A DNA stretch of 64,000 nucleotides from Clostridia bacterium. Its GTDB lineage: Bacteria > Bacillota > Clostridia > Oscillospirales > RGIG577. Made by a program: the position numbers and the translations under genes. Location of the stretch: the NCBI GenBank assembly GCA_017513095.1, contig JAFWDJ010000007.1, forward strand, positions 39,733 to 103,732, in the 5' to 3' direction. Below are positions 5,668 through 63,950 of the stretch, in pieces. Positions within the stretch are counted from its first letter, which is position 1. Each line of letters starts with the position of its first letter. Under the pieces are notes generated by a model, which did not search any database, had not been told where the DNA came from, and saw nothing but the letters and a program-made list of their open reading frames with translations.

Positions 5668-5669
5668 AC

Positions 5670-6140: not shown

Positions 6141-8509
6141 TATTCAGTTGCCTCCTTACGATTTTTATAAACATACAAATAGATGGCGGTAATAAGACTG
6201 TTTCTGTCTTTTTCGTTAAGCGACCAGTCCATCACGTGACCGGAAAACTCCCTGTAGCGCGCATATTCGTCGCTTCCTTTGGAAGGAGACAGTCTCGCCA
6301 GCAGATAAGCAAGCCTTGCAAGCGGCACCTTCCGCTGCGGATCGTCCCTTACCTCCCTCAGCAGGTCAAGAATGCGATACAGGAACGCGGTGCCCCGCTC
6401 CGTCTTTGTGTCCTCTTTCGCCGAGAAGAAGTTCTCCAGCACGGCGAGCTTTACGCCCATGATCTCTCTTTCGAATTCTTCCCATGTATACGTATTGCCG
6501 CTTCCCTGCGCAAAAAGAGAAACGGAATCTTTGCCCGGATTCTGCTTCGCTTCGTCCTCCAGGGCCCCGGTCTCCTCCGCGGCGAGGCGTATCGGGTAAT
6601 GATCGTCAAACAGACCTACGCCGCCGCTTATTGTCAGCGCTCCGCAGGCATACTCCTTCAAAGCGCTTCGTATCCTCCGCGCAGCCTCAAGGACGTCGTT
6701 CCATGCTCCGACAAGGAACACGTCATCCCCGCCGGAATAGACTACCGCGACGGCTAAAGCACTTTGTCCTTTGTACGAGCCGTTCAGCAGCGCTTTCAGA
6801 TAAAGCTTGAAGAACAGTGACATTTGACGCGAGAACGCCGCAGTGCGGGATATCGTGACAAAACGTCGGCGCTCAGACGCCGTTGCGCCGCTTTTACTCT
6901 CAAATCCGGACACGAAAGCCTGTCCGAGATCGTCAACGTCCATCCTGCAAACGGCAAGGCGTCTTATACCCTGACTATGCATTGCAAGTTCCTCCATGGA
7001 ATTGCTTTTCGCGTAGTCGCAAACGTAGAGCCGCGTGCTGTAACGCAGTCCCGCATAGCTTACGTTCTTTGTATAGACCCGCAGAACGGGCTTTTCCTCG
7101 CGAAGCGCCCTCCGCGCGGATGGCTCATCCGTGAAAAAGAAGGCCGCCTCGCCGTAATACGTCGGAAGCGTATAGTCCGCGCCCTTTTCCTCTCCGCAAA
7201 GCACAAGATAGACGCCCGTGTTCTGAATCTTGGACGACAGACGTTCAAACGTGCTGCACCAGCGACATAAGTCGCTTCCGTCCTCCCCCCTGATAAGATG
7301 ATCGGTCCTGCCGCAGACACGGCATTCCCTTCCGGAGAGCTCCTCCTTCGTCCGATTCATTTCGATTATCCGCTGCGCCGAATAACGGTGCAGTTTTTTC
7401 TTTGCCACCGCCCGCGAGACCCTGCCGAACATGGCCTGATACGGCGAGTCTTCCGCCGGGCTGTTCGTAAGCTCATCGGCGCTGCATTCCGTATATCCGT
7501 CGGCAAGATAAAGACTGAGGCCGAACTCATCGGCAAGCCAGCCGTTGAACCGATCGTTCCATGCCTCGATCCGCCGCTTCACCTCATCCGTATTCGGTAA
7601 AAGCAGATAGCAGTGTCCGCCGCCGGAATAGAGAAGATTCGCGCGGCTGACTCCGCACGCGGTCAGAAGCTCGTCTATGTAGTGCTCCATGGTCAGCTCC
7701 AGAAAGAAGGAGCGGCTGCGAAGAGAACGAAGCGCGCCCTTCGTCGAGACCGTAAAAATGAACGTCTGTATCCCCGAAAAATCCGCCGAATACAGAAGAA
7801 AGGCCTTCTTGGCGCGAAACTCCTTTTCCTTCTCAAAAAGCGCCGTACGGTAATCCGTCACGGAGGAATCGTAAAGATACAGCGCCATGCAGGACGCCAC
7901 CGCCGCGGTGATCTTCATGTGGTCATAAAGAGACACGTCCGGGCTTTCGGCCGTGTTCGTGCTTGAAGGCACACTGCTCGTCAGACTCTCCAGCACTCCG
8001 AGAATGGAATTGACCCACTCCTCCTCGGGCGGGAGCGTACGAAGCTGTGCCTCAAGCTCACGGCAAATTTCACCGTACTGTCCCGCCGTCAGACGGATCT
8101 CACTTGAAACGGGCATGCGCAGCGTTCCGTCCTGCGGCATGGCGGAAAGCGCCAGGCCGTCATGCTCGCCGTTAAGATGGGTAAATACCGGCGAAAGCGG
8201 CAGATAGCGCTCAAAGCGCCCGCTCTCTTCGGCGGCGCGGCGGTCAGCGGCCGCGGCGATATTATCGGCAGCGTATGCAATATAGGCGAGGCTGTCCGCC
8301 GCAGGCCCCGCCTCACGCAGCTCCGAGGCATGATGCCAGCGCACGCAGTCCGGCGCTTCACCCGGCGAATAGCCCTGCCACGCCTTCTTCAGAAAAGCGT
8401 GACCCGAAGCGCTGTGATTCCCGCTCTCGCCTGCGCGAAAGCAGAGCTTTCCTACGTCGTGCATGAGACATCCGAGCGTGAGCTCCAATATTTTCTGTCT
8501 CAAAAGCAT
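6140..8509 (-). CDS. cas10: Cas10/Csm1 with N-terminal HD nuclease domain and intact GGDD cyclase motif
   Basis: 789 aa. It has an HD motif (LGCLMHDVGK, WHHAS), a zinc-finger-like CRVCG...CRWC and a Palm GGDD (VVYSGGDDVFLVGAW). Confidence 0.9.
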   Translation of the reverse strand: MLLRQKILELTLGCLMHDVGKLCFRAGESGNHSASGHAFLKKAWQGYSPGEAPDCVRWHHASELREAGPAADSLAYIAYAADNIAAAADRRAAEESGRFERYLPLSPVFTHLNGEHDGLALSAMPQDGTLRMPVSSEIRLTAGQYGEICRELEAQLRTLPPEEEWVNSILGVLESLTSSVPSSTNTAESPDVSLYDHMKITAAVASCMALYLYDSSVTDYRTALFEKEKEFRAKKAFLLYSADFSGIQTFIFTVSTKGALRSLRSRSFFLELTMEHYIDELLTACGVSRANLLYSGGGHCYLLLPNTDEVKRRIEAWNDRFNGWLADEFGLSLYLADGYTECSADELTNSPAEDSPYQAMFGRVSRAVAKKKLHRYSAQRIIEMNRTKEELSGRECRVCGRTDHLIRGEDGSDLCRWCSTFERLSSKIQNTGVYLVLCGEEKGADYTLPTYYGEAAFFFTDEPSARRALREEKPVLRVYTKNVSYAGLRYSTRLYVCDYAKSNSMEELAMHSQGIRRLAVCRMDVDDLGQAFVSGFESKSGATASERRRFVTISRTAAFSRQMSLFFKLYLKALLNGSYKGQSALAVAVVYSGGDDVFLVGAWNDVLEAARRIRSALKEYACGALTISGGVGLFDDHYPIRLAAEETGALEDEAKQNPGKDSVSLFAQGSGNTYTWEEFEREIMGVKLAVLENFFSAKEDTKTERGTAFLYRILDLLREVRDDPQRKVPLARLAYLLARLSPSKGSDEYARYREFSGHVMDWSLNEKDRNSLITAIYLYVYKNRKEATE

Positions 8510-8526
8510 CTCTCCTTTCCTTGAGA

Positions 8527-9098
8527 TTGTTCGTCCCCTTGCGGGGTGTAGATTGTTTCGAGGAACAAAAATGAAAACCTATAAGCAGTTTGAGTTTCCG
8601 TCCCCTTGCGGGGTGTAGATTGTTTCACGCGTGGGAAGCATGGGCCGAGACGTACTACGACGTTTCCGTCCCCTTGCGGGGTGTAGATTGTTTCCTGGCT
8701 ACGGAGGCGCATCTACGGCAGGCGACAGAGGGTTTCCGTCCCCTTGCGGGGTGTAGATTGTTTCAGAAGACTTATTTCCTTCCGCTTGAAATCTTCAAGT
8801 TTCCGTCCCCTTGCGGGGTGTAGATTGTTTCCAAAAAAACATATTGAAAGGATGGCAAAACATGGTTTCCGTCCCCTTGCGGGGTGTAGATTGTTTCGAA
8901 AAACTTGCGGAGGCGGCAAAGATCGACAGCGTTTCCGTCCCCTTGCGGGGTGTAGATTGTTTCTTTAAGGTAAGAGGCAACCACGCCCCCGGTCAAGGTT
9001 TCCGTCCCCTTGCGGGGTGTAGATTGTTTCAAAAGGCGTTCAGTTTCTTTTATAGGTCAAAGGCCGTTTCCGTCCCCTTGCGGGGTGTAGATTGTTTC
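8527..9098 (-). CRISPR. CRISPR array: 9 repeats of 33 nt and 8 spacers of 33-37 nt, transcribed on the minus strand
   Basis: Plus-strand repeat is GTTTCCGTCCCCTTGCGGGGTGTAGATTGTTTC, starting at 8594, 8662, 8732, 8799, 8865, 8931, 8998 and 9066. A degenerate copy at 8527 has 3 mismatches at its first 5 nt. On the minus strand the repeat ends in ACGGAAAC, a type III-like 8-nt crRNA tag. It has a palindromic core CCCCGCAAGGGG. The degenerate repeat is the cas10-proximal trailer end. Confidence 0.95.
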
Positions 9099-9145
9099 GG
9101 CAAACATTCATAAAAACACAGGCTTACAGGCCCTTTCTTTTTTAC

Positions 9146-9174
9146 ATTTTACCAAAAAATTTTCATTTTTGCAA
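9146..9174 (-). promoter_or_regulatory. CRISPR leader promoter (TTGCAA, 17 nt, TGgTAAAAT) within the A+T-rich leader 9099-9282
   Basis: The minus strand reads cTTGCAAaaatgaaaattttttggTAAAATg. Spacing is 17 nt with an extended -10 TG. It lies about 45 nt upstream of the first repeat. Confidence 0.6.
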
Positions 9175-9282
9175 GCGCAGCGTGAAAAAAGCGCGGTCTT
9201 TTTCGCTCCGGCACGTCCGATTTTTGTGCGAACGTATCATCGTATGCGGCATATTAAAGAGCTTCAGCGCCGCTGCCCGCGT

Positions 9283-10620
9283 TCAGATCACGCTTTTGAT
9301 GTATTCGATGCATTCGTCATAGACGCCGAAGATCACCGGGTCGCACGCCGGATAGCAGATTCTGATCACGTCTTCGATCTCCTTAAGAAGCTTGTCCGAA
9401 GTGATTCCACACGCGTCTTTTATCTCCTCCTCCGTTACGGTGACGAGCGTATGGGCAAGCCGATTGCGCAGATCCTTAAGTCCGGCGTAATGGGCAAAGA
9501 GCGAACGCGATCTTGGGGGAACGTCCGGGAAAAAGGAAATCAGATCGTCGCACAACATCGTGCTGGCCTCGTTTTGTTTTATTTCCCACCGTCTTTCATT
9601 CATTATCTTTTCATAATGCCGGTAGAGATCCGGACGCACGTCTTTCAGCCTGTCGGGGTAAAATAAGCGGCGGCGTTCCCGCGAGATGAATTTGTCGATC
9701 TCTCCTCCCGTCTTATTAAGCAGCCTGTCAAGCTGCGCCAGCTGCAGCGTTAGCGTAAGCGGCTCCAGATGAAGCAAAAACTGCGTATAGTTACCCGTCT
9801 TCACCAGATTCTTCATCATAAGATAATATTCGCTTGCGTCGCTGTATTCCCTTCGGCTCCCGGTTTTATAGGCATAGAGCTTAAACGGCAGACCCTTTAC
9901 TTCATCGGCAAGCTGCTTTGCGGGCTTTTCCCTGAGTCTGCTGCGTGCGGCAAGGTGCATTGTCAGCGCCCGCACGTTCTCCGGCAGGGATTCTTTCAGT
10001 TTTTCCAGCGCCTCAAAGTTGCGGTCGTCAAGCAGCGTCACGATCTGGCGTCTGAGGAACTGACGTCGTATGGCATACATCTCGGGCTCGACGCAGCGGT
10101 TCTCCGCCTCGGGCAGCTCATCCTCGTTGCATTCCAGCTCCAGCTCGATATCATACTCACTGTGATTGGCGCGTTGGCTCCTGCCCGCCCCCTTCTCGAA
10201 ATTAATGACCTGTATGCCCTTCGCGCGGTATCGTATATCCGTCACAAGCTGCGAAAGTATCATTTGCATCTGCGGAGTGCCGGAGGTGACGTTTACCAAT
10301 ATCTCGGCGTCGTGGTTCTCTCTTGCGAGCCGTGTCATTACTTCGTGGATAGGAATATCCAGCGCGTCGATATCGTGCGCATTCCTGACGCTTAGCTCCT
10401 CGTACCTAAAATCGGGCCGATAGCCGTTCCAGTGCGCCGAAATCCACTCCAGAGTTCTTTCAAACCGTCCGTCCTTCATAGCAAGCTCGCGCATCTCGGG
10501 AGTGAAGATGAGCCATGCGCTTTCCGGGCGATAGTAGCGTAAAATATGCAGCATCGGTCCGTCATGTTCACCGCGCACAGGATCAGTGGTGCCTATACAG
10601 CTCAAAAGAATCTGTTTCAT
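9283..10620 (-). CDS. csm6: Csm6 (CARF + HEPN cyclic-oligoadenylate-activated RNase)
   Basis: 445 aa. The N-terminus MKQILLSCIGTTDPVRGEHDGPMLHILRYYRPE resembles streptococcal/enterococcal Csm6 CARF domains. The C-terminal HEPN R-X4-H motif is RNRLAH. Confidence 0.8.
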   Translation of the reverse strand: MKQILLSCIGTTDPVRGEHDGPMLHILRYYRPESAWLIFTPEMRELAMKDGRFERTLEWISAHWNGYRPDFRYEELSVRNAHDIDALDIPIHEVMTRLARENHDAEILVNVTSGTPQMQMILSQLVTDIRYRAKGIQVINFEKGAGRSQRANHSEYDIELELECNEDELPEAENRCVEPEMYAIRRQFLRRQIVTLLDDRNFEALEKLKESLPENVRALTMHLAARSRLREKPAKQLADEVKGLPFKLYAYKTGSRREYSDASEYYLMMKNLVKTGNYTQFLLHLEPLTLTLQLAQLDRLLNKTGGEIDKFISRERRRLFYPDRLKDVRPDLYRHYEKIMNERRWEIKQNEASTMLCDDLISFFPDVPPRSRSLFAHYAGLKDLRNRLAHTLVTVTEEEIKDACGITSDKLLKEIEDVIRICYPACDPVIFGVYDECIEYIKSVI

Positions 10621-10678
10621 ATTGTTCCTTCCTTTCCGTTTGGTATTCCGCGAATCTTCACGGTTGCTCTGTATTATT

Positions 10679-10707
10679 ATTATACCAACCTCGCATCACA
10701 TTTCATA
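10679..10707 (-). promoter_or_regulatory. Duplicated extended -10 promoter, now upstream of csm6
   Basis: It has the same TATGAA, 17 nt, TGgTATAAT arrangement as 1989-2017. Confidence 0.5.
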
Positions 10708-10743
10708 GCAGAAAATCGAACTAATTTGCTGCGGCAATGCAGT

Positions 10744-10772
10744 AAAAAACGCACGCCTAAGCGTGCGCTTTT
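10744..10772. terminator. Bidirectional terminator (duplicate of 2054-2082)
   Basis: The hairpin GCACGC-CTAA-GCGTGC and its A/T flanks are identical to those at 2054-2082. Confidence 0.7.
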
Positions 10773-10828
10773 GGGAAAGGGGCTAAAAAGACGGATTAGA
10801 GTGAAATATCTCCACTCGCGCCCGCAGA

Positions 10829-10895
10829 CATTTCACACGCCGCAGGCGTATTTCACGCGCGAAGCGCGTTTCACAAATCCGTGAAACGGATTTAT
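10829..10895 (+). repeat. Three tandem modules, each ATTTCAC followed by a short perfect hairpin
   Basis: The modules are atttcac-ACGCCgcaGGCGT, atttcac-GCGCgaaGCGC and tttcac-AAATCCGtgaaACGGATTT. A GTGAAAT (reverse motif) sits at 10801. Confidence 0.6.
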
Positions 10896-10902
10896 TTTGT
10901 TG

Positions 10903-18176: not shown

Positions 18177-19418
18177 TTATTCTGATCCTTTAGATTTAAA
18201 AGCTTCTACTATTGGGATCATATTCGTTTTCCCTATATCTAATGAGGAAGCATGATTAAATAGCTGGTTAAATATATATTTCTTATCTTGAATTTTAGTT
18301 TGCTCAAAATAGCACTCCCTCTCGCTCAATGTGATAGTAACTTCCATAAAAGTCAACACATCCTCAGTACTAAAGGCCAAACGCTCTTTGGAAGTCATCT
18401 GCAGATATTCTTCTTTCAAAGGGAGCGTTGTATACGTCATCATGAAATAAACGGCAACGATATCCTCTTTGGCAATACGTGTTGCAACTTCATTAACTTT
18501 TCTATATATTGTTGTTTTTAGTCCACCGTTGAAAGAGTCAAGCTCAAATGTACTATCGCTAAAAACAATCATAAAAGTTGGCATAAGATCCGTTGTCCCA
18601 ATCACAACATTCATTAATACAAACTTGTTGAAATAATCGTCTCCCATCTTTGAATACAGCGGATGACGATTAAAATTGCTTAACGGAATACGTACACGAT
18701 CTCTTTTATCACCAGAATTCATTATCATTGCATATCTTTCTGCTCGCTCGAATTTTTTCTTTTGAGGATAATATACATAATCGTTAATTAAAAACATATC
18801 TCTTGGGATTTGTGAAAACTTTAGTCCGGAAATCTTTTCCATAATCACGTCAGAAAGTTTACTATGTTCTCCTACCTCCGCATACATAGCTTTCAGAAAA
18901 CATGACATGCTATGTATTCCTTCAATTATTTTTTTATATACATCTTCTTTACTAGTTTTATCATAGAAAGAAAACTCGGATGAGAAAAATACTTCAATTG
19001 GATTAATGCTGGCAAAAAAACTTTTCAAATCATCCAGGAGGTCAGATAATTCCATATCATTTTCAACGGAAAAGGTCTTGCTTAACACATGCATTCCAGC
19101 AAATGGAAAGAAAACCATAATATCAATTTGTTTGACAAGCTGAAATGGGTGCTCTTTCGTTGTTTCATTTCTTTTGTCAATCATCCACCTACAAGATGAA
19201 AGGTATTTGTCTCTATTCTTTTCGTAAATAGTTTTACAATCTGTGTGTGCAATAGATTTTTGCAATACAAATGTGACATTCCTATACTCAGAGAAAAAAC
19301 TATCAAGGGCTGATATATTGTCAAAAAAATCAGCTTCCTTGTTGAATCGCTCCAGGGAATTTAGCGCACTATAGTATTTTTGCAATGCCGGAAATAGATA
19401 GTCAGACATTATTATCAA
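18177..19418 (-). CDS. Orphan 413-aa protein, no recognisable domain, in an A+T-rich islet
   Basis: Long uninterrupted ORF in markedly A+T-rich DNA, 45 nt downstream of the KilA-N gene on the same strand. I could identify no motifs. Confidence 0.7.
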   Translation of the reverse strand: MIIMSDYLFPALQKYYSALNSLERFNKEADFFDNISALDSFFSEYRNVTFVLQKSIAHTDCKTIYEKNRDKYLSSCRWMIDKRNETTKEHPFQLVKQIDIMVFFPFAGMHVLSKTFSVENDMELSDLLDDLKSFFASINPIEVFFSSEFSFYDKTSKEDVYKKIIEGIHSMSCFLKAMYAEVGEHSKLSDVIMEKISGLKFSQIPRDMFLINDYVYYPQKKKFERAERYAMIMNSGDKRDRVRIPLSNFNRHPLYSKMGDDYFNKFVLMNVVIGTTDLMPTFMIVFSDSTFELDSFNGGLKTTIYRKVNEVATRIAKEDIVAVYFMMTYTTLPLKEEYLQMTSKERLAFSTEDVLTFMEVTITLSERECYFEQTKIQDKKYIFNQLFNHASSLDIGKTNMIPIVEAFKSKGSE

Positions 19419-19463
19419 CTCCTTAATGAAATCCTCTCAAAACAAAATATGGTGCGTCCGCTC

Positions 19464-20072
19464 TTATTCAGTATTGGCTGGATCAAATGTTTCCATTCTC
19501 GAACTTGTGAAAAACTTCAACACTTCGTATCTAAACTCAGCATCATTCCACATTTCAAAATCGCAGGCAATAAAGGGATGGGCCATCGTCCCACCGCCTT
19601 TGCCCTGCTTTGAGGTAATGCCAGTGGCATTCGTCAAGTCGATCCATTTCTTTGGTGTCAGAGTAAACTGCGGTGTTTTTGCATCAACCACTAGTTTTTG
19701 AAATGCCGCCTCATTGAATTGCGGATTGTTGCTCCGTTCCCACGCTGCCAGGAACTCAACTGTATTGCGGCTTCGCAGCCAGCTTTGAATTAAGTAGCTT
19801 GGATTCTCGGCGTCAAATTTGCGTGCAATTTCAGTCAAGGAAATATAATCATCGGATGGATGCAGATATTTGGCAACTGTTTCTTCGAGATAGGCGTTCA
19901 TCTTTGGCTCATAGATTGGCGCCTCATCCTTTAATATCGACTCAAAGATAACATCCAAATAGCGACTCCAGTCCTCTGCTCTGATGGGGGATAGCTTATT
20001 CACACGCACCAAAAACTTCTCTCTGGTTAGAGCGTATGCCCATTCCAGTTCCTCTTTGGTCGCTCTTGGCAT
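19464..20072 (-). CDS. KilA-N domain DNA-binding protein with a ~70-aa N-terminal extension
   Basis: DYISLTEIARKFDAENPSYLIQSWLRSRNTVEFLAAWERSNNPQFN...WIDLTNATGITSKQGKGGGTMAHPFIACDFEMWNDAEFRYEV matches the KilA-N family pattern. Confidence 0.7.
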   Translation of the reverse strand: MPRATKEELEWAYALTREKFLVRVNKLSPIRAEDWSRYLDVIFESILKDEAPIYEPKMNAYLEETVAKYLHPSDDYISLTEIARKFDAENPSYLIQSWLRSRNTVEFLAAWERSNNPQFNEAAFQKLVVDAKTPQFTLTPKKWIDLTNATGITSKQGKGGGTMAHPFIACDFEMWNDAEFRYEVLKFFTSSRMETFDPANTE

Positions 20073-20421
20073 CTGTTTTCACCACTTTCGCTTGATTGGG
20101 ATTCCGGCAGTTTTCCCCTTTCAAAAAGTACACGTCACAGTATTCTTCAAAATCGATGATACCCTTCGTGTATTTCCCATTGTTTAGCAGTTTATTAAGC
20201 ACATCTCTGCTCCAATGTGCATTTCCAGAGGGAGAAGGAATTCCTTGGTTGAATAAATAGCTTTGAATAGATTCCAAACTATTTCCAGCTCTGTAGAGCC
20301 CGAAAATAGTTTTGACAACTTCCGCTTGTTCGGGCACGACTTCAACAAGCCCCTGCTTGTCCCTTCTGTAGCCGTAGCAGATTCTTCCGAAAAGTCTTGA
20401 TTCGACTAATGACAATTTCAT
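19996..20421 (-). pseudogene. Remnant of a large serine recombinase (recombinase domain only; catalytic resolvase domain and zinc-ribbon/coiled-coil missing)
   Basis: FGRICYGYRRDKQGLVEVVPEQAEVVKTIFGLYRAGNSLESIQSYLFNQGIPSPSGNAHWSRDVLNKLLNNGKYTKG matches the recombinase (PF07508-like) domain. No resolvase domain is encoded upstream (20422-20670 is non-coding). The 3' end overlaps the KilA-N ORF. Confidence 0.7.
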
Positions 20422-20628
20422 AATTTTGGTTCCTTTCTAATTATACTGATTTCAACGTGCGTTTTCAATATAAAACACAAATATTAGTGGAATTAGTGCA
20501 AATTCAAAACCTCTATATTAGTGATTTATTTCGTCGGCTGATTGTTTTGGAGTTGTTTTTGATATGAAAATGGAGCAGATTTCCTCGAAAATCCGCTCCA
20601 AAACAGCATTTATTCACTTATTTGTGGG

Positions 20629-20671
20629 ATAAAAAGAGACAAACAGGCTTTTATCCAGCTTGTTTGTCTCT
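20629..20671 (-). terminator. ssrA terminator
   Basis: The minus strand reads AGAGACAAACA...TGTTTGTCTCT followed by TTTTTA, immediately after the tmRNA CCA end. Confidence 0.75.
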
Positions 20672-20673
20672 TT

Positions 20674-21028
20674 TGGTGGAGGCGAGGAGAGTCGAACTCC
20701 TGTCCGAAAACACGTCCCCCCGACTTTCTACGGATATAGCCTGATGTTTATAATTCCCTACGATGCACGCCGACAGGCGGGCTTACATTTTCGGTAGCTT
20801 CATTTTACATGACGCGGGCAAAGCTTACCGCGTACACGTTCACCGCTGATCGACGCCCCATCCCATGCCGCGGTCCTCACGGGCGGGACGGCTGTGCGTA
20901 ATTACGCAGCTACTGCTAATCTGTTAGTTCTGTTAGCGTTTATTTTTAAAGTTGCCCGTTTTTAAATGGCCGGGCGCCATTATCCGCTTATCGGGCTTCG
21001 GCATCCCCGTCGAAACCGGTACGCCCCC
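20674..21028 (-). ncRNA. ssrA: tmRNA (transfer-messenger RNA)
   Basis: On the minus strand the 5' end is GGGGGCGTACCGGTTTCGACGGGGATGCC and the 3' end is GGAGTTCGACTCTCCTCGCCTCCACCA (T-arm, acceptor and CCA). The internal tag frame GCT AAC AGA ACT AAC AGA TTA GCA GTA GCT GCG TAA predicts the tag ANRTNRLAVAA. It lies directly downstream of smpB. Confidence 0.9.
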
Positions 21029-33074: not shown

Positions 33075-35435
33075 ATGACTGAACGTGTACGAAAATTAAG
33101 AGAACAGAGCCTTAACACGGCTCCGCGCATAGATATGGAGCGCGCGCGCCTTGAAACGGAATGCTATAAGCGTTTCGAGGGCACGATGAGCGTGCCCGAG
33201 CTTCGCGCCGCCGTTTTGAAATACCTGATGGAGCATAAAACGCTGTACTTCGGCGAGGGCGAGCTCATCGTCGGTGAAAAGGGCGCGTCGCTTCAGACGG
33301 CTCCCACCTTCCCCGAGCTTTGCTGCCACACGACAGGCGACATGCTCACGATGGACCGCCGCGAGCTTATCTCGTTTAAAGTAACCGATGACGATATCGC
33401 GCTTCAGCGCGACGTGATAATACCGTTCTGGGAGAACCGCAGTATGCGAAAAAAGCTCATAGGCGCCATGAGCGACGAATGGAAGGCCTGCTACGAGGCG
33501 GGCATTTTCACCGAATTCATGGAGCAGCGCGGCCCCGGACATACCGTCGGAAGCGAGAATATATATAAAAAGGGCTTTCTTGACTATAAATCGGACATAC
33601 GCGCGGCCACAGACGCGCTCGACTTTGAAAACGACCCCTCTGCCCTCTCGCGCCTTGAGCAGCTTCGCGCGATGGACACGGCGTGCGACGCGATAATCAT
33701 ACTCGGCGAAAGATACAGAAAGCTTGCGCTTTCACTTTACGAAAAAGAGACCGACGAAAACCGCCGCTCGGAGCTATTGACGATCGCCGGAAATCTTGAG
33801 GTCGTGCCCGCTCACAAGCCGGAAACGTTTCATCAGGCGCTTCAGATGTACTGGCTCGTTCACCTGTGCGTAACGAGCGAGTTAAATCCCTGGGACGCGT
33901 ACAGTCCCGGCAGGCTCGATCAGCATCTTTATAAGTTCTACAAGCGTGACGTCGAAGCGGGACGCCTCACGCGGGAGCGTGCGCTCGAGCTTATGGAATG
34001 TCTTTGGGTCAAGTTCAACAATCAGCCCGCGCCGCCCAAGGTTGGCATAACGCTCAAGGAAAGCGGCACGTATACCGACTTTGCCAACATAAACACCGGC
34101 GGCATAACGCCCGAGGGCGAAAACGGCGTAAACGACGTAAGCTTTATAATTCTCGACTGCATGGACGAAATGCGGCTTCTTCAGCCGAGCTCCAATGTAC
34201 AGATAAGCCGCAAAAATCCCGACGAATTCTTATACCGTGCCTGCGAAATATCGAAAAAAGGCTGGGGTCAGCCCGCCTTTTACAATACCGAGGCGATAAT
34301 CGCGGAGCTTTTGAACGCGGGCAAGTCGCTTTCGGACGCCTACCGCGGCGGGACGAGCGGCTGCGTTGAAACGGGCGCCTTCGGAAACGAGGCGTATATC
34401 CTGACGGGCTACTTCAATCTGCCCAAAATCCTCGAGCTTACCTTAAACAACGGCTATGACAGGCGCACAGAGCGTCAGCTTGGGCCTAAGCTTGGCTTTG
34501 CGGAGGATTTCAAGTCTTTCGACGAGCTTTTTTCGGCCTATAAAAAGCAGGTGCGCCATTTTATCGACATAAAGGTGCGCGGCTCAAATATAATAGAGCA
34601 GCTTTACGCGAAATATATGCCCGTGCCGTTCTTGTCGGTCATAACGAACGACTGCATCTCGCGCGGACTCGACTACAACGCGGGCGGCGCGCGCTACAAT
34701 ACGTCTTATCTTCAGGGCGTGGGCATCGGCACGATAACCGATTCGCTCACCGCGATAAAATACAACGTCTTCGATAAAAAGAATTTCACGATGGCCGAGC
34801 TTTCGCGCGCGCTTTCTGACAACTTTGAGGGGCACGAGCGCATACTCGCGCTCGTACGCGGAAAAACGCCCAAATACGGCAACGACGACGATTACGCCGA
34901 CGGCGTCATGCGCGAGGTGTTCGGATTTTACCGCACCTGCGTCACCGGCCGAAGCAACACGCGCGGCGGCATGTGGCGCATAAACATGCTGCCCACTACC
35001 TGCCACGTCTACTTCGGCGAGGTCATGGGCGCAAGCGCGAACGGCCGCCTTGCGGGAAAGCCCGTCTCCGAGGGCATATCTCCCGCCAAGGGAGCCGATA
35101 TTTACGGCCCCACCGCAGTTTTAAAGTCGTGCGCGAAGATGGACCAGCTCAAAACGGGCGGCACGCTTTTAAATCAGAAGTTCGTCCCCTCCGCGATCGC
35201 GGGAGAAACCGGCACGAAAAATTTAGGCTCGCTCATACGCGCCTATTTTGAAATGGGCGGTCATCATATACAGTTCAACGTGATAGACACGCAAACGCTC
35301 AGGGACGCGCAGGCGCATCCCGAGAATTACCGCGACCTTATCGTGCGCGTGGCGGGCTACAGCGACCACTTCAACAACTTAAGCCGCGCGCTGCAGGACG
35401 AGATAATCGAGCGCACGGCCCACGCCGCGCTGTAA
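33075..35435 (+). CDS. hypD: Glycyl radical enzyme of the 1,2-eliminase class, most similar to trans-4-hydroxy-L-proline dehydratase (HypD)
   Basis: Glycyl radical motif RVAGYSDHFNNL near the C-terminus and a thiyl loop GTSGCVETG (Cys plus Glu, dehydratase-type). Long stretches (WVKFNNQPAPPKVGITLKESGTYTDFANINTGG, GWGQPAFYNTEAI, KTPKYGNDDDYAD) agree with my recollection of HypD. This was not verified by search. Confidence 0.6.
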   Translation: MTERVRKLREQSLNTAPRIDMERARLETECYKRFEGTMSVPELRAAVLKYLMEHKTLYFGEGELIVGEKGASLQTAPTFPELCCHTTGDMLTMDRRELISFKVTDDDIALQRDVIIPFWENRSMRKKLIGAMSDEWKACYEAGIFTEFMEQRGPGHTVGSENIYKKGFLDYKSDIRAATDALDFENDPSALSRLEQLRAMDTACDAIIILGERYRKLALSLYEKETDENRRSELLTIAGNLEVVPAHKPETFHQALQMYWLVHLCVTSELNPWDAYSPGRLDQHLYKFYKRDVEAGRLTRERALELMECLWVKFNNQPAPPKVGITLKESGTYTDFANINTGGITPEGENGVNDVSFIILDCMDEMRLLQPSSNVQISRKNPDEFLYRACEISKKGWGQPAFYNTEAIIAELLNAGKSLSDAYRGGTSGCVETGAFGNEAYILTGYFNLPKILELTLNNGYDRRTERQLGPKLGFAEDFKSFDELFSAYKKQVRHFIDIKVRGSNIIEQLYAKYMPVPFLSVITNDCISRGLDYNAGGARYNTSYLQGVGIGTITDSLTAIKYNVFDKKNFTMAELSRALSDNFEGHERILALVRGKTPKYGNDDDYADGVMREVFGFYRTCVTGRSNTRGGMWRINMLPTTCHVYFGEVMGASANGRLAGKPVSEGISPAKGADIYGPTAVLKSCAKMDQLKTGGTLLNQKFVPSAIAGETGTKNLGSLIRAYFEMGGHHIQFNVIDTQTLRDAQAHPENYRDLIVRVAGYSDHFNNLSRALQDEIIERTAHAAL

Positions 35436-35490
35436 CGCGCGCCGAAACTCCCGGCAAAGCTCAGAATTGCGTATAAAAGCGAAGAATACT

Positions 35491-35731
35491 CTTTTCGGCA
35501 CGCTGACAGGGTACCAAAAAAGAGGTCAGAATTGTCGATTGCCGAGCGTCGGCGTATGTTATACGTTAGAGAAGGCAATCGACACATAGCCGAAAACGCC
35601 GTAACCCAAAGGTTACGGCGCAAAAGTCGATTTGAAAAAGTGTGCATAACATTTTTGATTCGTAAACTGTATGCACACTTTTTTTGCTTTAATATTATAT
35701 TCTTTTCGGCGGTCTGGCCCTTTTTTGACAG
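35491..35731 (-). repeat. Structured repeat element, copy 1 (minus orientation)
   Basis: The reverse complement aligns with 45444-45680. A core of about 130 nt is about 90% identical by hand count and the 5' part is more divergent. It contains the hairpins GCGCCGTAACCtttgGGTTACGGCG and GTCGATTGCC...GGCAATCGAC and a bidirectional-terminator-like AGTGTGCATA...TATGCACACT. Confidence 0.85.
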
Positions 35732-35799
35732 ACTGTGAAAAGGCAGGCGCTTTCGCGCCTGCCCTTTCCAAAGCGAGGTCGTCTTATATAAAGACCGGT

Positions 35800-44593: not shown

Positions 44594-45373
44594 GTGACGT
44601 ATAAAAAGCTTTTGATAATATTTATAATAGGAATAATCCTCGTCGGCGCGGGCGCGGGCGTTTCAGTAGCCGAATTCGGAAGCTACCGCAATATGGGCGA
44701 AAAAACGATTCCGAGCAGCGAGGAGGACATAAGGACGGAAAGCTTCGATATAGTGCTTTCGGGCTCCCCCGAGGACAGAAGGGTGACGCTTGAGCTTAAC
44801 CCCTACGATCAGCGGCTTAACGCTGTCGTACCCGTCTTCACAGAGGACGAGTCACTGACGGACGGCCTTATCCGCATTGAAACGAAGTACAACGGCCGTT
44901 ATTACTATATGGACGTGGAACATTCGCGGATTCTTACGGTCGACGGCGAGGAAAAACCCGATTTCGGCTACGACGCAGAGCTCGGACGGTATTACTACAT
45001 TAAGACCGTCGAAGACGAATACTCCTTCGACGACGAGGAATATTTCGACGAGGACGGATACATCGGCGGCGAGGAATATTTCGACGAGGACGAATACTTT
45101 GACAAGGACGAATACAATGGCGGCGATGACGTAATCGTGTCCCCCCGCGCGGAAAAAATATATCCCGAAACGGGGCATTATAAGGTGAACGAGGATATAA
45201 CGGTCTATTCGTACACCGCACACTCCGCCTTCTTCGGAATTCCGAACGGCGTGAGCATTGCCGACGTGCTCGAGGACTTAAAGCACAGGGAGATATACAC
45301 GTACGTAAGACCCGCCGACTTTTCGGTGACCGTTTTCGGAAACAAAAGTACTCTCGCGGAAATAGAATACTAA
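44594..45373 (+). CDS. Membrane-anchored hypothetical protein, third gene of the padR operon
   Basis: GTG start, N-terminal TM helix and an acidic DEEYFDEDGY repeat region. Confidence 0.55.
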   Translation: MTYKKLLIIFIIGIILVGAGAGVSVAEFGSYRNMGEKTIPSSEEDIRTESFDIVLSGSPEDRRVTLELNPYDQRLNAVVPVFTEDESLTDGLIRIETKYNGRYYYMDVEHSRILTVDGEEKPDFGYDAELGRYYYIKTVEDEYSFDDEEYFDEDGYIGGEEYFDEDEYFDKDEYNGGDDVIVSPRAEKIYPETGHYKVNEDITVYSYTAHSAFFGIPNGVSIADVLEDLKHREIYTYVRPADFSVTVFGNKSTLAEIEY

Positions 45374-45411: not shown

Positions 45412-45440
45412 GCGGAAGCCGCTTTCACGGCTTCCGCTTT
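45412..45440. repeat. 29-bp terminator hairpin, left copy of a perfect direct duplication
   Basis: GCGGAAGCCGctttcaCGGCTTCCGCttt is identical to 45705-45733. Confidence 0.95.
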
Positions 45441-45704
45441 ATGCTGTCAAAAAAGGGTCGGACCGCCGAAAAGGATAAAATATCAGAACAAATAATGTGT
45501 GCAGCCATTTTACAAATCAAAAATTCCGGCACATCGTATCAGCGCGGCTTTTGCGCCGTAACCTTTGGGTTACGGCGTTTTCGGCTATATGCCGATTGCC
45601 TTCTCTGCCGTATTTAATACGCCGACGTTCGGCAATCGACAATTCCAACCTCTTTTTTTGGCACCCTGTCAGCGTGTCGAAATAGTGTGTTTCGACACGC
45701 TGAC
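45441..45704 (+). repeat. Structured repeat element, copy 2 (plus orientation), 264 bp
   Basis: It starts atgCTGTCAAAAAAGGG and ends with a perfect 15-bp hairpin GTCAGCGTGTCGAAA...TTTCGACACGCTGAC. It is homologous to the reverse complement of 35491-35731. Confidence 0.85.
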
Positions 45705-45733
45705 GCGGAAGCCGCTTTCACGGCTTCCGCTTT
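45705..45733. repeat. 29-bp terminator hairpin, right copy of the duplication
   Basis: Identical to 45412-45440 and followed by an extended T-run. Confidence 0.95.
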
Positions 45734-59263: not shown

Positions 59264-59537
59264 GAAGATTGAATGATGAAACACCGCGCGAAACCGCGCG
59301 GTGTTTTTTGTTTGCGGGGGGATTTGGTGGGGAAAAAAGTATACTTTTTCCCACCCCGTATTGCATAATTTTTGGCAGAGTGATACACTATATCTTGTAA
59401 TGCCGAAAAGAATCGGCACAAAAATTCAAGTGGTGCGTAAAGTATACTTTTTTCCCCGATTTTCGGCCGAAATACAGGTAAAATCTCATGTTTTTGTGCC
59501 CGAATTCAGGAAAAAGAGCACGGAAAGGACGGTTTTT

Positions 59538-62500
59538 ATGAAAAAGAAGGTTTTAAGCCTCATTGTGGCACTCGTTATGGTGCTTACGATGCTCCCCGTG
59601 ACGGGTCTGGCGGCGGATACGCCTCCGGCGGTAAACATCACGCAGATAAGCTACGCCGACGGCGCAGTCAGCCTTGCATGGCAGGCGCAGGACGGCGTTG
59701 ACGGCTACCGAGTGTACCGCAAAACGGGTACGGGTTCGTGGACGAGCATACTTTCGTCTACAACGGCGACGTCGTATGTCGACGACACCGTAACGGAGGG
59801 CAAAACGTATTCGTATACGATTCGCTCGTTCGTAGGCAAGACGTACAGCGCGGGCTACGCCGACACGGCTAAGACGATAACCGCGAAAGCATCGGTTGAG
59901 ACGCAGCCCGTGACGATAACGTCGATTAGCTACGCTAACGGTGCAGTCAGCCTCGCATGGCAGGGACAGGACGGCGTGGACGGCTACCGCGTATATCGCA
60001 AGACCGGCTCGGGCAAATGGTCGACTGTGCTTTCCTCTACGACGGCGACTTCATACGTCGACAACACCGTAACGGAGGGCAAGACGTACAGTTATACCAT
60101 CCGTTCAAAAGTGGGAAGCACGTGGAGCACCGGATATGACGCGACGGCGAAGACTATCACGGCGAAAGCCGCAGTCGAGCCGCAGCCCGTGACAATAACG
60201 TCGATAAGCTACGCTAACGGCGCGGTCAGCCTTGCTTGGCAGGCGCAGGACGGCGTTGACGGCTACCGCGTGTATCGCAAGACCGGCTCCGGCAAGTGGA
60301 CAACCGTTTTGTCTTCCACGACGGCAACGTCGTACAAAGATACCACCGTAACCGAAGGCACAACATACAGCTATACTATCCGCTCCAACGTCGGCAGCGC
60401 ATGGAGCACGGGCTATGCCGATACGGCGGCGACCATCACGGCGAAAGCCGCAGTCGATCCGATGCCTGTAACAATAACGTCTATAAGCTACGCGAACGGC
60501 GCTGTCAGCCTTGCTTGGCAGGGACAGGACGGCGTTGACGGCTACCGAGTATACCGCAAGACCGGCTCCGGCAAGTGGACGATCGTTTTATCCTCAACGA
60601 CGGGCACATCGTACACCGATACCACCGTAACCGAAGGCACAACATACAGCTATACTGTCCGCTCCAACGTCGGCAGTGCATGGAGCACGGGATATGCCGA
60701 TACGGCGGCAACGATAACGGCAAAGCCCGCAGTAGAGCCTGCGCCCGTAACGATAACGTCGATTGACTACGCAAACGGCGCAGTAAGCCTCGCTTGGCAG
60801 GGACAGGACGGCGTTGACGGCTACCGCGTATACAGAAAGACCGGTTCCGGCAAGTGGACCGTGCTTCTTTCGTCCACGACGGCGACGAGCTATACCGATA
60901 CTACGGTGACCGAGGGCACCACGTACAGCTATACCATACGCTCCAACGTCGGCAGCGCATGGAGCACGGGCTATGCAGATACGGCGGCAACAATAACGGC
61001 GAAGGCCGCAGTCGATCCGATGCCCGTGACGATAACCGACATAAGCTACGCAGACGGCGCGGTGAGCCTCGCTTGGCAGGGACAGGACGGCGTCGACGGC
61101 TACCGCGTATATCGCAAGACCGGCTCCGGCAAGTGGACGAGCATTTTATCCTCCACTACGGAAACGAGCTACACCGACACAACGGTGACAGAAGGTACTA
61201 CATACAGCTATACGATCCGTTCGTTCGTCGGCAAGACGTACAGCACCGGCTACGACGCGACGGCGAAGTCGATAAAAGTTTCTCCCGCCGCACCCCCCGA
61301 CGTGAACATAAACATGATAACGCAGAGCAGCACGGGCGGCATAAAAATAGCGTGGGATGCGGCGGATAATGTTGACGGCTACCGCGTATACAAAAAGTCC
61401 GGCAGCGGAAGCTGGAAGACGGCTCTTTCCAACACTACCGACACAACGTTCATCGATACCGACGTAACGCCCGGAGTGACGTATTATTATACGGTGCGTT
61501 CTGTAAAGGGCGGCGTATGGAGCACAGGATATAACGACACGGCAAAGAGCTTTAAGGCGGGCACGCCGGGGCTTTGGTCGAACGGTGGAACTATTAACGG
61601 CATTGACGATAAGACTGTAGAAAAAGTATACATTCCCGTATCGATTGACGGCGCAGCCGTGACGAGCATTGGCGGGTATGCCTTCCGGAACTGTAGCAGT
61701 CTTACGTCGGTAATTATTCCCGAGGGTGTGACGAGTATTGGCGAGCATGCATTCGACAACTGCAGCAGTCTTACGACGGTAATTATTCCTGAGGGGGTAA
61801 CAAGCATAGGGGCATGGACGTTCGCATACTGTAGCAATCTTACATTGGTAATTATTCCCAAGAGCGTGACGTGCATAAGTTACGGAGCGTTCCGGAACTG
61901 TAGCAGTCTTAAGTCGATGACTATACCCGAGGGCGTGACGTGTATAGAGAACGATACGTTCTCCGGTTGCAGCAGTCTTACGTCTGTGACGATACCGTCG
62001 AGCGTGACGAGCATTGGAGAAAGTGCGTTCCATACCTGCAGCAGCCTTACGTCTGTGACAATACCGGAAGGCGTGACGTGTATAGAGGAAGATACGTTCA
62101 GAGGCTGCAGCAGTCTTACGTCCGTGACGATACCGTCGAGCGTGATGAGCATTGGAAAATATGCGTTCTTGAAATGCATCAGCCTTACGTCGGTGACGAT
62201 ACCCGAAGGCGTGACGTGTATAGAGGAAGATACGTTCTCCGGTTGCAGCAGTCTTACGTCCGTGACGATACCTTCGAGCGTGACGAGCATTGGAGAACGT
62301 GCGTTCCATACCTGCAGCAGCCTTACGTCCGTGACGATACCGTCGAGCGTGACGAGCATTGGAGAACGTGCGTTCCAACTTTGCAGCGGGCTTACGTCCG
62401 TGACGATACCCGAAGGCGTGACGAGCATTGCATACCAAGCGTTCTCCGGTTGCAGCGGCCTTACGTCGGTGATGATACCCGAAGGCGTGACGAGCATTGC

Positions 62501-63950
62501 ATACCAAGCGTTCTCCGGTTGTAGCGGCCTTACGTCGGTTACGATACCCGAAGGCGTGACGAGCATTGGCTCATATGCGTTCTCGGGCTGCACCGGCCTT
62601 ACGTCCGTGACAATACCGTCGGGCATTACAAGCATTGGCGACGGTATATTCCAAGGCTGCAGTAGTCTTACGTCGGTAATGATACCCGAAGGAGTGACGA
62701 GTATAGGCGAGCGCGCATTCCAAACCTGTGAAAGTCTTACATCCGTGACAATACCGTCAAGCGTTAAGGACATAGGCGATTATGCGTTCCAGAATTGCAG
62801 AGGCCTTGTGTCCGTAACGATATCGGAGGGCGTTGAAAGCATAGGCAAGGGAGCGTTTTCAAACTGTACTGCTCTTACGTCGATAACAATACCGTCGAGC
62901 GTTAAATCTATCGGTGCAGATGCGTTCAAGTATTGCAAGCTTACGGACATAAAGGTCGAAAGTGGAAACAATTCTTATGTGTCGGTTGACAACGTGCTTT
63001 TTACAAAAGATATGAAAACACTCGTAAAGTGCTCGGTTGACGTGACCGGAGCTTATGCGATACCATCCGGCGTGACCGATATAAGCGAATACGCATTCTA
63101 TAACTGCAGACAGATCACTTCATTAAGCATACCGTCGAGCGTAACGAAAATAGGCAAGTATGCCTTCGAACAATGCAGAGGGCTTACGTCTTTGATTATT
63201 CCGAAAAGCGTGACGGATATAGGCGGCGGAGCGTTCAGAAAGTGCTGGAATCTTACGTCGATAACCGTTGATAAGGATAATGCGGCATATGTTTCGACGG
63301 ACGGCGTGCTGTTCACTAAAGACAAGAAAACCATCGTCGCTTTTCCGTATGGCAAAGCTGTGTCTTATTCCATTCCGTCAGGGGTTACGACAATAGGCTG
63401 CAACGCATTTGACGGATGTGATAAGCTTACGTCCGTGACTATTCCGTCCAGCGCAAAGAGCATTGGCAATTATGCGTTCTACAACTGCAGCAGTCTTACG
63501 TCGGTAACGATTTCGAATGGCGTGACGAGCATTGACCAAGCCGCATTTCAAGGATGCAGCAGTCTTACGTCGGTAACTATCCCTTCGAGCGTGACGAGCA
63601 TTGGCCAACTCGCATTTCAAGGATGCAGCAGTCTTACGTCGGTAACTATCCCTTCGAGTGCGAGGCAAATTGATGGGGGCGTTTTCCGCGACTGTACTTC
63701 GCTTACATCGATTGTGATTCCCGAAGGCGTGACGGTCATAAACCAGTTATTCAGAAATTGTACAGCACTCAAGTCGGTTTCTATACCGAAAAGCGTTACT
63801 GATATATATGCTTCTTCGTTTGAAGGCTGCACCGCTCTTACGGACGTATATTATGCCGGAACACATGATGAGTGGAGCACAATAAATATAAACGAGAATA
63901 ATAATGACCCCCTCTATAGCGCCACCATCCACTACAACAGCGCGCCGTAA
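59538..63950 (+). CDS. Giant secreted surface protein: signal peptide, 7 Fn3-like repeats, about 30 BspA-type leucine-rich repeats
   Basis: The start was moved to MKKKVLSLIVALVMVLTMLPVTGLAADT (signal peptide). The upstream 79 codons of the track ORF lack coding character. Confidence 0.85.
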   Translation: MKKKVLSLIVALVMVLTMLPVTGLAADTPPAVNITQISYADGAVSLAWQAQDGVDGYRVYRKTGTGSWTSILSSTTATSYVDDTVTEGKTYSYTIRSFVGKTYSAGYADTAKTITAKASVETQPVTITSISYANGAVSLAWQGQDGVDGYRVYRKTGSGKWSTVLSSTTATSYVDNTVTEGKTYSYTIRSKVGSTWSTGYDATAKTITAKAAVEPQPVTITSISYANGAVSLAWQAQDGVDGYRVYRKTGSGKWTTVLSSTTATSYKDTTVTEGTTYSYTIRSNVGSAWSTGYADTAATITAKAAVDPMPVTITSISYANGAVSLAWQGQDGVDGYRVYRKTGSGKWTIVLSSTTGTSYTDTTVTEGTTYSYTVRSNVGSAWSTGYADTAATITAKPAVEPAPVTITSIDYANGAVSLAWQGQDGVDGYRVYRKTGSGKWTVLLSSTTATSYTDTTVTEGTTYSYTIRSNVGSAWSTGYADTAATITAKAAVDPMPVTITDISYADGAVSLAWQGQDGVDGYRVYRKTGSGKWTSILSSTTETSYTDTTVTEGTTYSYTIRSFVGKTYSTGYDATAKSIKVSPAAPPDVNINMITQSSTGGIKIAWDAADNVDGYRVYKKSGSGSWKTALSNTTDTTFIDTDVTPGVTYYYTVRSVKGGVWSTGYNDTAKSFKAGTPGLWSNGGTINGIDDKTVEKVYIPVSIDGAAVTSIGGYAFRNCSSLTSVIIPEGVTSIGEHAFDNCSSLTTVIIPEGVTSIGAWTFAYCSNLTLVIIPKSVTCISYGAFRNCSSLKSMTIPEGVTCIENDTFSGCSSLTSVTIPSSVTSIGESAFHTCSSLTSVTIPEGVTCIEEDTFRGCSSLTSVTIPSSVMSIGKYAFLKCISLTSVTIPEGVTCIEEDTFSGCSSLTSVTIPSSVTSIGERAFHTCSSLTSVTIPSSVTSIGERAFQLCSGLTSVTIPEGVTSIAYQAFSGCSGLTSVMIPEGVTSIAYQAFSGCSGLTSVTIPEGVTSIGSYAFSGCTGLTSVTIPSGITSIGDGIFQGCSSLTSVMIPEGVTSIGERAFQTCESLTSVTIPSSVKDIGDYAFQNCRGLVSVTISEGVESIGKGAFSNCTALTSITIPSSVKSIGADAFKYCKLTDIKVESGNNSYVSVDNVLFTKDMKTLVKCSVDVTGAYAIPSGVTDISEYAFYNCRQITSLSIPSSVTKIGKYAFEQCRGLTSLIIPKSVTDIGGGAFRKCWNLTSITVDKDNAAYVSTDGVLFTKDKKTIVAFPYGKAVSYSIPSGVTTIGCNAFDGCDKLTSVTIPSSAKSIGNYAFYNCSSLTSVTISNGVTSIDQAAFQGCSSLTSVTIPSSVTSIGQLAFQGCSSLTSVTIPSSARQIDGGVFRDCTSLTSIVIPEGVTVINQLFRNCTALKSVSIPKSVTDIYASSFEGCTALTDVYYAGTHDEWSTININENNNDPLYSATIHYNSAP
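59628..61580 (+). repeat. Seven tandem 279-bp (93-aa) repeats inside the surface-protein gene
   Basis: The period was verified at the PVTITSISYANGAVSLAWQGQDGVDGYRVYRKTGSGKW unit starts (59907, 60186 and onward). Repeats 2-6 are near-identical. Repeat 1 differs mainly at its N-terminal edge, and repeat 7 is clearly more diverged. Confidence 0.9.
61630..63850 (+). repeat. Array of 69-bp (23-aa) LRR units (SLTSVTIPEGVTSIGERAFxGCS)
   Basis: Consecutive units are visible in translation. Two adjacent units (about 62400-62540) are almost identical at the DNA level. Confidence 0.85.

Follow-up and report, generated by a model that had tools for sequence, protein, structure and literature searches.

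In a 64-kb stretch of DNA from a Clostridia bacterium (assembly GCA_017513095.1, contig JAFWDJ010000007.1; the whole stretch is called here the window), a 264-bp non-coding segment at 45441-45704 lies between two convergent genes and is flanked on both sides by the same terminator hairpin. What brought this segment, hereafter the element (copy 2), into a transcription terminator, and how did an entire stem-loop come to be duplicated around it? An earlier note on this DNA had pointed to the duplication and to another copy of the element in the window (copy 1). We consider it probable that 45441-45704 is a non-autonomous element, similar to MITEs (miniature inverted-repeat transposable elements), which entered a bidirectional terminator and duplicated its whole stem-loop, and that its mobiliser is most likely a transposase of the IS1182 insertion sequence (IS) family acting in trans.

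A terminator hairpin is duplicated exactly around the element

The 29-nt sequence GCGGAAGCCGCTTTCACGGCTTCCGCTTT, composed of a 10-bp stem and a 6-nt loop followed by TTT, is found in the window at two places and no more, 45412-45440 and 45705-45733, while the number expected by chance is 0. No further match was found in the window when up to three mismatches were allowed. The two repeats enclose the 264 bp of 45441-45704, and the perfect terminator-hairpin duplication that had been described as exactly bracketing the element was indeed found, with both of its copies in place. The stem of this hairpin has no other occurrence in the 64 kb; it is therefore a local duplication and not a dispersed repeat of the repetitive extragenic palindromic (REP) type. 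The open reading frames (ORFs) on either side are convergent, ending at 45373 (plus strand) and 45736 (minus strand), and the right repeat, which runs on into TTTTTT, was called as an intrinsic terminator. At this copy the duplication spans the 26-nt stem-loop and three T, leaves a hairpin next to the stop codon of each gene, and is offset by 3 nt, that is asymmetric, relative to the extended palindrome. No microhomology was found at the right-hand junction of copy 2. The features of the locus are as follows.

44594-45373, plus strand: upstream convergent gene, 259 amino acids, no Pfam domain, whose terminator is the target (synteny with the relatives L004 and L009)
45412-45440: left target-site duplication, hairpin GCGGAAGCCG-CTTTCA-CGGCTTCCGC followed by TTT (exact 29-mer; fold of -21.6 kcal/mol)
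45441-45704, plus strand: element copy 2, complete, 264 bp, non-coding, highly structured and non-autonomous (bracketed by the duplication; homologous to copy 1 over 45444-45682)
45441-45458, plus strand: non-hairpin end of the element, ATGCTGTCAAAAAAGGGT read from the outside in, whose core CTGTCAAAA is common to the ends of families H and K (see below) and to IS1182-type inverted repeats
45553-45577, plus strand: invariant internal hairpin GCGCCGTAACC-TTT-GGGTTACGGCG then TTTT, a terminator-shaped core within a 41-nt block identical in both copies
45668-45704, plus strand: terminal hairpin GTCAGCGTGTCGAAA-TAGTGTG-TTTCGACACGCTGAC, a perfect 15-bp hairpin 0 nt from the right duplication copy
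45705-45733: right target-site duplication (exact 29-mer), which runs on into the original T-tract and then the minus-strand gene's stop codon
45736-46563, minus strand: downstream convergent gene, 275 amino acids, served by the same bidirectional terminator (ORF with orthologues)

Near its 3' end, the 259-amino-acid gene to the left of copy 2 also contains a tandem series of 18-nt repeats (45009-45116) that code mainly for stretches rich in Asp, Glu and Tyr.

Orthologues of the 275-amino-acid flanking protein were found with 85%, 83% and 65% identity. In the 65% relative, L009, gene order is kept on both sides (PadR, HAAS, CorA, NMO), the orthologous convergent genes are 35 bp apart, and the gap consists of one bidirectional terminator, aaaaaGGCAGGCgtaaaGCCTGCCttttt, with no element. 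This layout is that of the window minus the element and one repeat, and copy 2 is therefore an insertion. The empty site that the earlier note had proposed to look for in relatives thus exists, and its observation that removal of the element with one repeat restores a bidirectional terminator agrees with what this relative carries. Since synteny is conserved across copy 2 in element-free relatives, we also ruled out a composite transposon in which the two inverted copies would be the ends of a 10-kb unit. Logan short-read contigs of the window's own strain break within the element, as expected for a repeat; the break points could also reflect extra copies, but bubbles due to single-nucleotide polymorphisms between strains produce the same pattern.

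The 85% relative, L004 (GCA_017405765.1), shows a different situation. A separate hairpin-mosaic repeat family, with tandem units of about 115 nt (L004 10820-11203 and 17498-17856; L013 8440-8893), occupies both orthologous sites in this relative. At the first of these sites the mosaic repeat has a hairpin on either side; the two hairpins have identical stems of 14/15 nt (GCCGAAACGGCGCG...CGCGCCGTTTCTTTC) and unrelated 11-nt loops, and a simple target duplication is no adequate account of this arrangement.

The element is non-coding and its folded interior is conserved

The element has the generic features of a MITE: it is small, encodes nothing, occurs in several copies, ends in inverted repeats and is flanked by a target-site duplication. 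The two ends of copy 2 form an imperfect inverted repeat (TCAGCGTGTCGAAAA versus TGAGCCTGTCAAAAG), and the hairpin end thus corresponds to the terminal inverted repeat plus its own inverted copy. No ORF of the element is recorded in a collection of 15 billion proteins, and no conserved promoter was found in the element. A search of the window with Rfam 15 at the gathering score gave nothing on the element (only the transfer-messenger RNA (tmRNA) and Gut-1 elsewhere), and nothing credible appeared on the element at E <= 10.

Folding is strong on either strand (z = -7 to -11). The predicted fold has a closing stem that pairs the left terminus with a T-rich block, followed by several internal hairpins. 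We observed that, when stems are predicted from a single copy, the 39 differences between copies 1 and 2 either fall outside them or keep them paired: only 4-7 stem pairs are broken versus 16-17 expected (P about 0.0004), and two pairs are altered on both sides, i.e. compensatory. The invariant core has a sole match in 185,000 species-representative genomes, which is a real Pseudomonas terminator with an identical stem.

Copy 1 is inverted relative to copy 2, lies 10 kb away at 35493-35731 and is about 84-86% identical to it. It also stands between convergent genes, one for a hydroxyproline-dehydratase-type glycyl-radical enzyme and the other for a 3-hydroxyacyl-CoA dehydrogenase.

35432-35447, plus strand: possible displaced distal arm of copy 1, GTAACGCGCGCCGAAA, 13/16 to the expected arm and 43 nt from its partner, only marginally above chance
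35493-35737, minus strand: element copy 1, which is older or truncated and has neither the distal hairpin arm nor a target duplication; its outer tip, 35732-35737 (CACAGT), is uncertain
35742-35763: terminator hairpin GGCAGGCGC-TTTC-GCGCCTGCC, next to the non-hairpin end of copy 1 and belonging to the 3-hydroxyacyl-CoA dehydrogenase gene on the minus strand (in L011, this gene has Pfam 3HCDH domains)

In the orientation of the element, the CTGTCA end of copy 1 is 10 nt (TTTTCACAGT) past the dehydrogenase terminator hairpin, in keeping with the earlier claim of a hairpin about 10 nt away in the same relative orientation; the hairpin is present, at coordinates slightly to the left of the region first given (35745-35770). 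Homology between the two copies ends at 45682, and the last 22 nt of copy 2, namely the loop and distal arm of the 15-bp hairpin, are missing from copy 1. The stop codon of the glycyl-radical-enzyme gene overlaps the 13/16 match to this missing arm, and the element may supply that stop codon. At the same codon this gene ends CTG TAA, versus TTT TGA in its closest relatives (35430-35447).

Elements with the same ends occur in other gut genomes

Further copies of the window type were found neither in species-representative genomes (the one match being the ordinary Pseudomonas terminator), nor in JGI metagenomes searched with a core pattern and then a terminus pattern, nor in IMG/VR or plasmids, nor by a profile search over 209 kb of the window and its relatives. 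A weak phage-database match to the terminal hairpin, in turn, proved genuine. The arm GTCAGCGTGTCGAAA recurs as a hairpin beside a GC-rich, terminator-like hairpin in several human-faecal contigs labelled 'Bacteriophage sp.', in an IMG/VR contig and in an 861-kb replicon of Vescimonas fastidiosa (Oscillospiraceae); its identity in these unrelated gut contigs and in Vescimonas is 15/15.

These loci define two families. Family H is about 160 nt long and runs from the hairpin to ...CTCTTTTGACAGGCTC (six full-length copies and an internally deleted one, from Vescimonas, were examined), and family K is 235 nt long and runs from CAGACTGTCGATAAACCC to the hairpin (two copies examined). The window element has both ends in common with H and K, that is the hairpin and ...CCCTTTTTTGACAG in the same orientation, and a different interior. 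The ends shared by this group of small elements from gut Clostridia are a perfect hairpin (G)TCAGCGTGTCGAAA-loop-TTTCGACACGCTGA(C) and, on the other side, ...TTTTGACAG (reverse complement) plus 3-5 nt. A family-H profile matches the site of the terminal hairpin in the window (nhmmer E = 4e-4). Three different interiors carried between the same two ends point to recognition of the ends by an enzyme. In family H, 10/49 pairs are compensatory, and Rfam searches of the family H and K loci at E <= 1 gave nothing credible.

One IMG/VR contig, L027, has at 280-560 the 18-mer CAGACTGTCGATAAACCC in common with family K and nothing else; this region contains a direct repeat of about 45 nt (GACATTGGGCGAGGTTCCT...GTGAACGGAAACT) whose copies are about 240 nt apart.

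Whole-hairpin duplication is a trait of the group

The junctions of ten copies were compared (window copies 1 and 2, L017, L018 and L020-L025), with the following flanking duplications.

Window copy 2: 29/29
L017: 29/33
L022: 29/30
L023: 25/25
L018: 29/29
L020: 16/16
Window copy 1, L021, L024 and L025: none

Locus-specific palindromic duplications of 16-33 bp are thus present at six of the ten copies, the maximum score of shuffled flanks being 12. All six duplicated units are palindromic and each folds as a hairpin; their sequences are mutually unrelated and range from GC-rich terminators (-21 to -35 kcal/mol) to the 16-nt, AT-only AATAATTACAAATTAT. The geometry of the junctions is constant, one duplicate lying 0 nt from the hairpin end and the other beginning 3-5 nt beyond ..GACAG. 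In L017 the duplicates (271-304 and 470-503) have four differences, which are mirrored between the arms such that each copy remains a perfect palindrome; this suggests templated quasipalindrome correction after the duplication. The proposal of a non-autonomous element that sits at a terminator and duplicates the whole hairpin therefore generalises from the window to five more related elements in other genomes, and, of the catalogue of copies that the earlier note had called for, six of the ten examined here uphold the link between duplication and palindromic target.

IS1182-family transposases as candidate mobilisers

A 29-bp duplication had been called unusual, which was overstated, since hairpin-length duplications are documented for the IS1182 family and for the IS30-type elements IS1630, ISMhom-1 and ISMfau-2. 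ISBma2, an IS1182-family element of Burkholderia, makes 18-26-bp duplications; the printed examples are perfect hairpins with a GC-rich centre and A/T runs on either side, and the duplication is lost in about 66% of the copies (PMC2877748). ISCbo5 of C. botulinum group III and C. novyi is found in gene-end hairpins in all cases but one (PMC3098183). IS1272/TnSha1 of Staphylococcus always inserts in terminator hairpins, without sequence specificity and with a partial deletion instead of a duplication (PMC4923244).

We compared the ends of the small elements with those of this family. The family-K end CAGACTGTCGATAAACCC matches both inverted repeats of ISBma2 at 14/18 positions, ungapped and in register; comparable matches to the ISBma2 repeats occur elsewhere about 4 times in 565,000 positions. 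The best match to an ISBma2 inverted repeat in the window (11126) lies inside a small coding gene and was discarded as chance. IS1272 was recovered from a staphylococcal plasmid through a published probe, and its transposase was used as the query on the gut dataset that holds families H and K. IS1182-family transposases are encoded on seven contigs of this dataset, and one of the seven, on contig L031, passes the NCBI equivalog cut-off (NF033551, 353 bits versus 270). The IS1182-family element of L031, at 860-2515, is intact and has terminal inverted repeats of 33 bp (30/33) ending ...GTCTGTTGACAAACC; contig L029 carries a 1676-bp IS1182-type element whose ends, AGGCTGTCTCAAA(T/A)A, come close to the end AGCCTGTCAAAAGAG of family H. 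A scan of five IS1182-type loci with the end motif found the hairpin end in none. In L031, part of the repeat is present once more, in inverted form, immediately beyond the left end, where it forms a hairpin, a disposition that resembles the double-inverted-repeat end of the small elements.

Behaviour, co-occurrence and a moderate similarity of the ends make IS1182 the most likely family of the mobiliser. The element does not represent a new kind of mobility and is instead a previously undescribed non-autonomous relative of the terminator-targeting ISs, probably of the IS1182 family. In such a case, an IS1182-family DDE transposase supplied in trans would bind the two outer inverted repeats and would recognise a hairpin or cruciform target by its shape and not by its sequence. 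The target palindrome would be extruded as a cruciform or hairpin, and the element ends would be joined at the base of the stem. The two strand transfers, near in space at the base of the cruciform, would be one palindrome apart in sequence, and gap-repair synthesis would then copy the palindrome to both sides; the duplication would thus have the length of the hairpin because the strand transfers take place at the base of the extruded cruciform. The hairpin kept next to each stop codon may explain why such insertions are tolerated.

Several observations weigh against this reading. The interior of the element is under structural constraint, which a plain MITE does not need, and the window-type element is known from two copies only across all data searched. 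Copy 1, for which the association with a terminator stands, has no flanking duplication (its best shared flank, 7 nt, is under the shuffled maximum) and lacks the distal hairpin arm. The window element's own ends show no significant similarity to the ISBma2 inverted repeats, only the core CTGTC..AAA being in common, and the family-H ends are only moderately similar to the L029 repeats, with one end among the top 7 of 515,440 positions and the others just under the cut-off. Neither the ten window ORFs that were checked, in the first 24 kb, nor the 50 kb around the Vescimonas copies yielded a transposase of any kind. The autonomous partner with the same termini that the earlier note had proposed to search for was sought by a motif-pair scan, a scan with the family-K end and BLAST with the family-K element, and no autonomous element with the hairpin end was found. 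Finally, IS30-type elements make the same kind of duplication, and behaviour alone does not therefore name the family.

Alternative explanations

The structured interior leaves some room for a broader interpretation, which we hold to be a minor possibility: a superfamily of terminator-homing non-autonomous elements with a functional, covarying interior and a double-inverted-repeat hairpin end common to three unrelated interiors, in which the passenger itself would direct structure-guided targeting. By mimicking a cruciform or hairpin, the element's own hairpin might then pair the transpososome with a target hairpin; alternatively, the interior might serve as a replacement terminator or an RNA-stability module, making the insertion neutral for both genes.

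Mobilisation of the same non-autonomous transposon by an IS30-family transposase of the IS1630 type is improbable. In the subgroup formed by IS1630, ISMhom-1 and ISMfau-2 of Mycoplasma, locus-specific repeats measure 16-29 bp, and IS1630 targets inverted repeats and duplicates them, with duplications of 16-26 bp (PMC2853133, PMC3317919, PMC7648426, PMC11062135). ISMfau-2 has locus-specific duplications of 19-29 bp in 9/10 copies, insertion of ISMhom-1 preserves the 3' ends of genes, and the 29-bp size observed here fits this range slightly better than the 18-26 bp of ISBma2. However, hairpin duplication of the IS30 type is documented in Mycoplasma only and no IS30-type gene was seen in any locus, whereas inverted repeats of the IS1182 type are matched both by the end core CTGTC..AAA and by the end of family K, and the IS1182 family has members in the same gut dataset and is documented to target terminators in Clostridium.

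We regard as distinctly improbable that the element is a structured non-coding RNA gene, or a module of 3' untranslated regions, spread by recombination or template switching at terminators. The duplication would then be a by-product of replication, in which a fork halted at the hairpin switches to a donor locus, copies it and comes back at a point upstream of the hairpin. The strong folding, the spared stems and the compensatory pairs (two in the window type, 10/49 in family H) speak for such a module, and 'insertion with long target duplication' without a transposase has been described for restriction-modification genes. Yet there is no Rfam family and no conserved promoter, and the three interiors with the same two ends point to enzymatic end recognition. 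In addition, sporadic replication errors would hardly give six independent duplications whose junctions all have the same geometry, and the right-hand junction is devoid of microhomology. A known RNA family or riboswitch was likewise rejected, having no Rfam support.

The arm-spacer-arm form of the flanking and terminal hairpins (10-15-bp arms, 4-7-nt spacer) resembles the core sites of a tyrosine recombinase or Xer, but a site-specific recombination module is very improbable and effectively refuted by the diversity of the targets: a recombinase needs a fixed site, whereas the flanking repeats differ wholly in sequence and length, from a 16-nt AT-only unit to a 33-nt GC-rich one, are ordinary gene terminators in relatives, and have no recombinase gene adjacent to the element. 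The chance of a degenerate, ORF-less class C group II intron or another retroelement (the earlier note had drawn an analogy to group II introns) is practically nil: the element does lie 6-10 nt past a terminator hairpin and T-run, oriented as the upstream gene, but 264 nt is far too small, there are inverted repeats at the termini of the element, Rfam gave no match to Intron_gpII or related ribozyme domains at E <= 10, and intron retrohoming makes no target duplication, so that the 29-bp duplication and the absence of ribozyme domains refute it. Dispersed, REP-like flanking hairpins were also rejected, since the hairpins are unique to the locus.

Implications

If the element was indeed moved by an IS1182-family transposase, an IS1182-type element with ends GCGTGTCGAAA / TTTTGACAG is expected in the source genome. 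Terminators suit a selfish element: they are intergenic, they follow most operons, and they are rebuilt by the duplication, both neighbours keeping one. Shape-directed insertion in terminators is known for a few full-length ISs. With only 160-265 bp, well-delimited ends and six natural junctions that show the state before and after insertion, the small elements of these uncultured gut Clostridia would be a handy substrate for asking how hairpins or cruciforms are read by a DDE transposase, and what makes the duplication as long as the palindrome. For annotation, such elements explain assembly breaks at gene ends, and tandem identical terminators can mark an insertion.

Other features of the window

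A type III-A CRISPR-Cas locus occupies 2216-10777, with Cas10/Csm1 at 6140-8509, Csm6 at 9283-10620 and an array of at least nine repeats (GTTTCCGTCCCCTTGCGGGGTGTAGATTGTTTC) at 8516-9107. It is bracketed by a 160-bp direct repeat (1928-2087 and 10618-10777, 95% identical), and a Gut-1 RNA (RF01706, 74 bits) lies on the minus strand just past the right-hand copy, at 10825-10902. A 52-nt repeat is present at 2091, 14430 and 18115. The region 18177-21028 contains the tmRNA gene (20674-21028, minus strand) beside a KilA-N-domain gene (19464-20072) and a 413-amino-acid ORF without a Pfam match, and may be a genomic island integrated at ssrA. At 59301-63950, most of an ORF of 1549 amino acids is taken up by coding repeats in tandem, one kind with a period of 279 nt and six to seven copies, the other with a period of 69 nt and about 20 copies; the product of this ORF is probably a cell-surface protein.

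Comparison with known systems

The closest resemblance is with the IS1182-family ISs. Like them, the small elements use palindromes or terminators at gene ends, recognised without primary-sequence specificity; they make whole-hairpin duplications of variable length (16-33 bp here, 18-26 bp for ISBma2) and have many copies without a duplication (4/10 here, 66% for ISBma2). They share the inverted-repeat core CTG(A/T)C..AAA with this family, which occurs in Clostridia and in the same gut dataset. They differ from it by their size of about 160-265 bp and by being non-coding, without a transposase, as well as by having one end in the form of a perfect hairpin, made of the inverted repeat and its inverted copy, and an interior that is structurally conserved. 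IS1272 departs further from the small elements in that part of the hairpin is deleted and not duplicated.

The IS30 subgroup of Mycoplasma is comparable by behaviour only: it makes locus-specific direct repeats of 16-29 bp, and ORFs stay intact where it has inserted at the 3' ends of genes. Its members are, however, autonomous elements of 1.2-1.4 kb known from Mollicutes only, and no sign of IS30-type genes or ends was seen here, no IS1630-type sequence having been compared.

Bacterial MITEs such as Correia, RUP and bcr1 are likewise small, non-coding, multi-copy and intergenic, with terminal inverted repeats and a target duplication, and are presumably mobilised in trans. Their duplications are typically of 2-9 bp, of fixed length and at sequence-defined sites, whereas here a whole hairpin of variable length is duplicated and the interior is structurally conserved. 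Class C group II introns also insert just downstream of terminator stem-loops, but they are ribozymes of at least 600 nt that move through an RNA intermediate and make no target duplication, and the elements described here have none of these properties. Finally, REP/BIME and REPIN sequences are hairpin-rich extragenic repeats found, as here, between convergent genes near terminators. In these systems the REP itself is dispersed and is moved by RAYT (Y1) transposases without target duplication; in the elements described here, on the contrary, every locus has flanking hairpins of its own, and what is dispersed is the unit enclosed by them.

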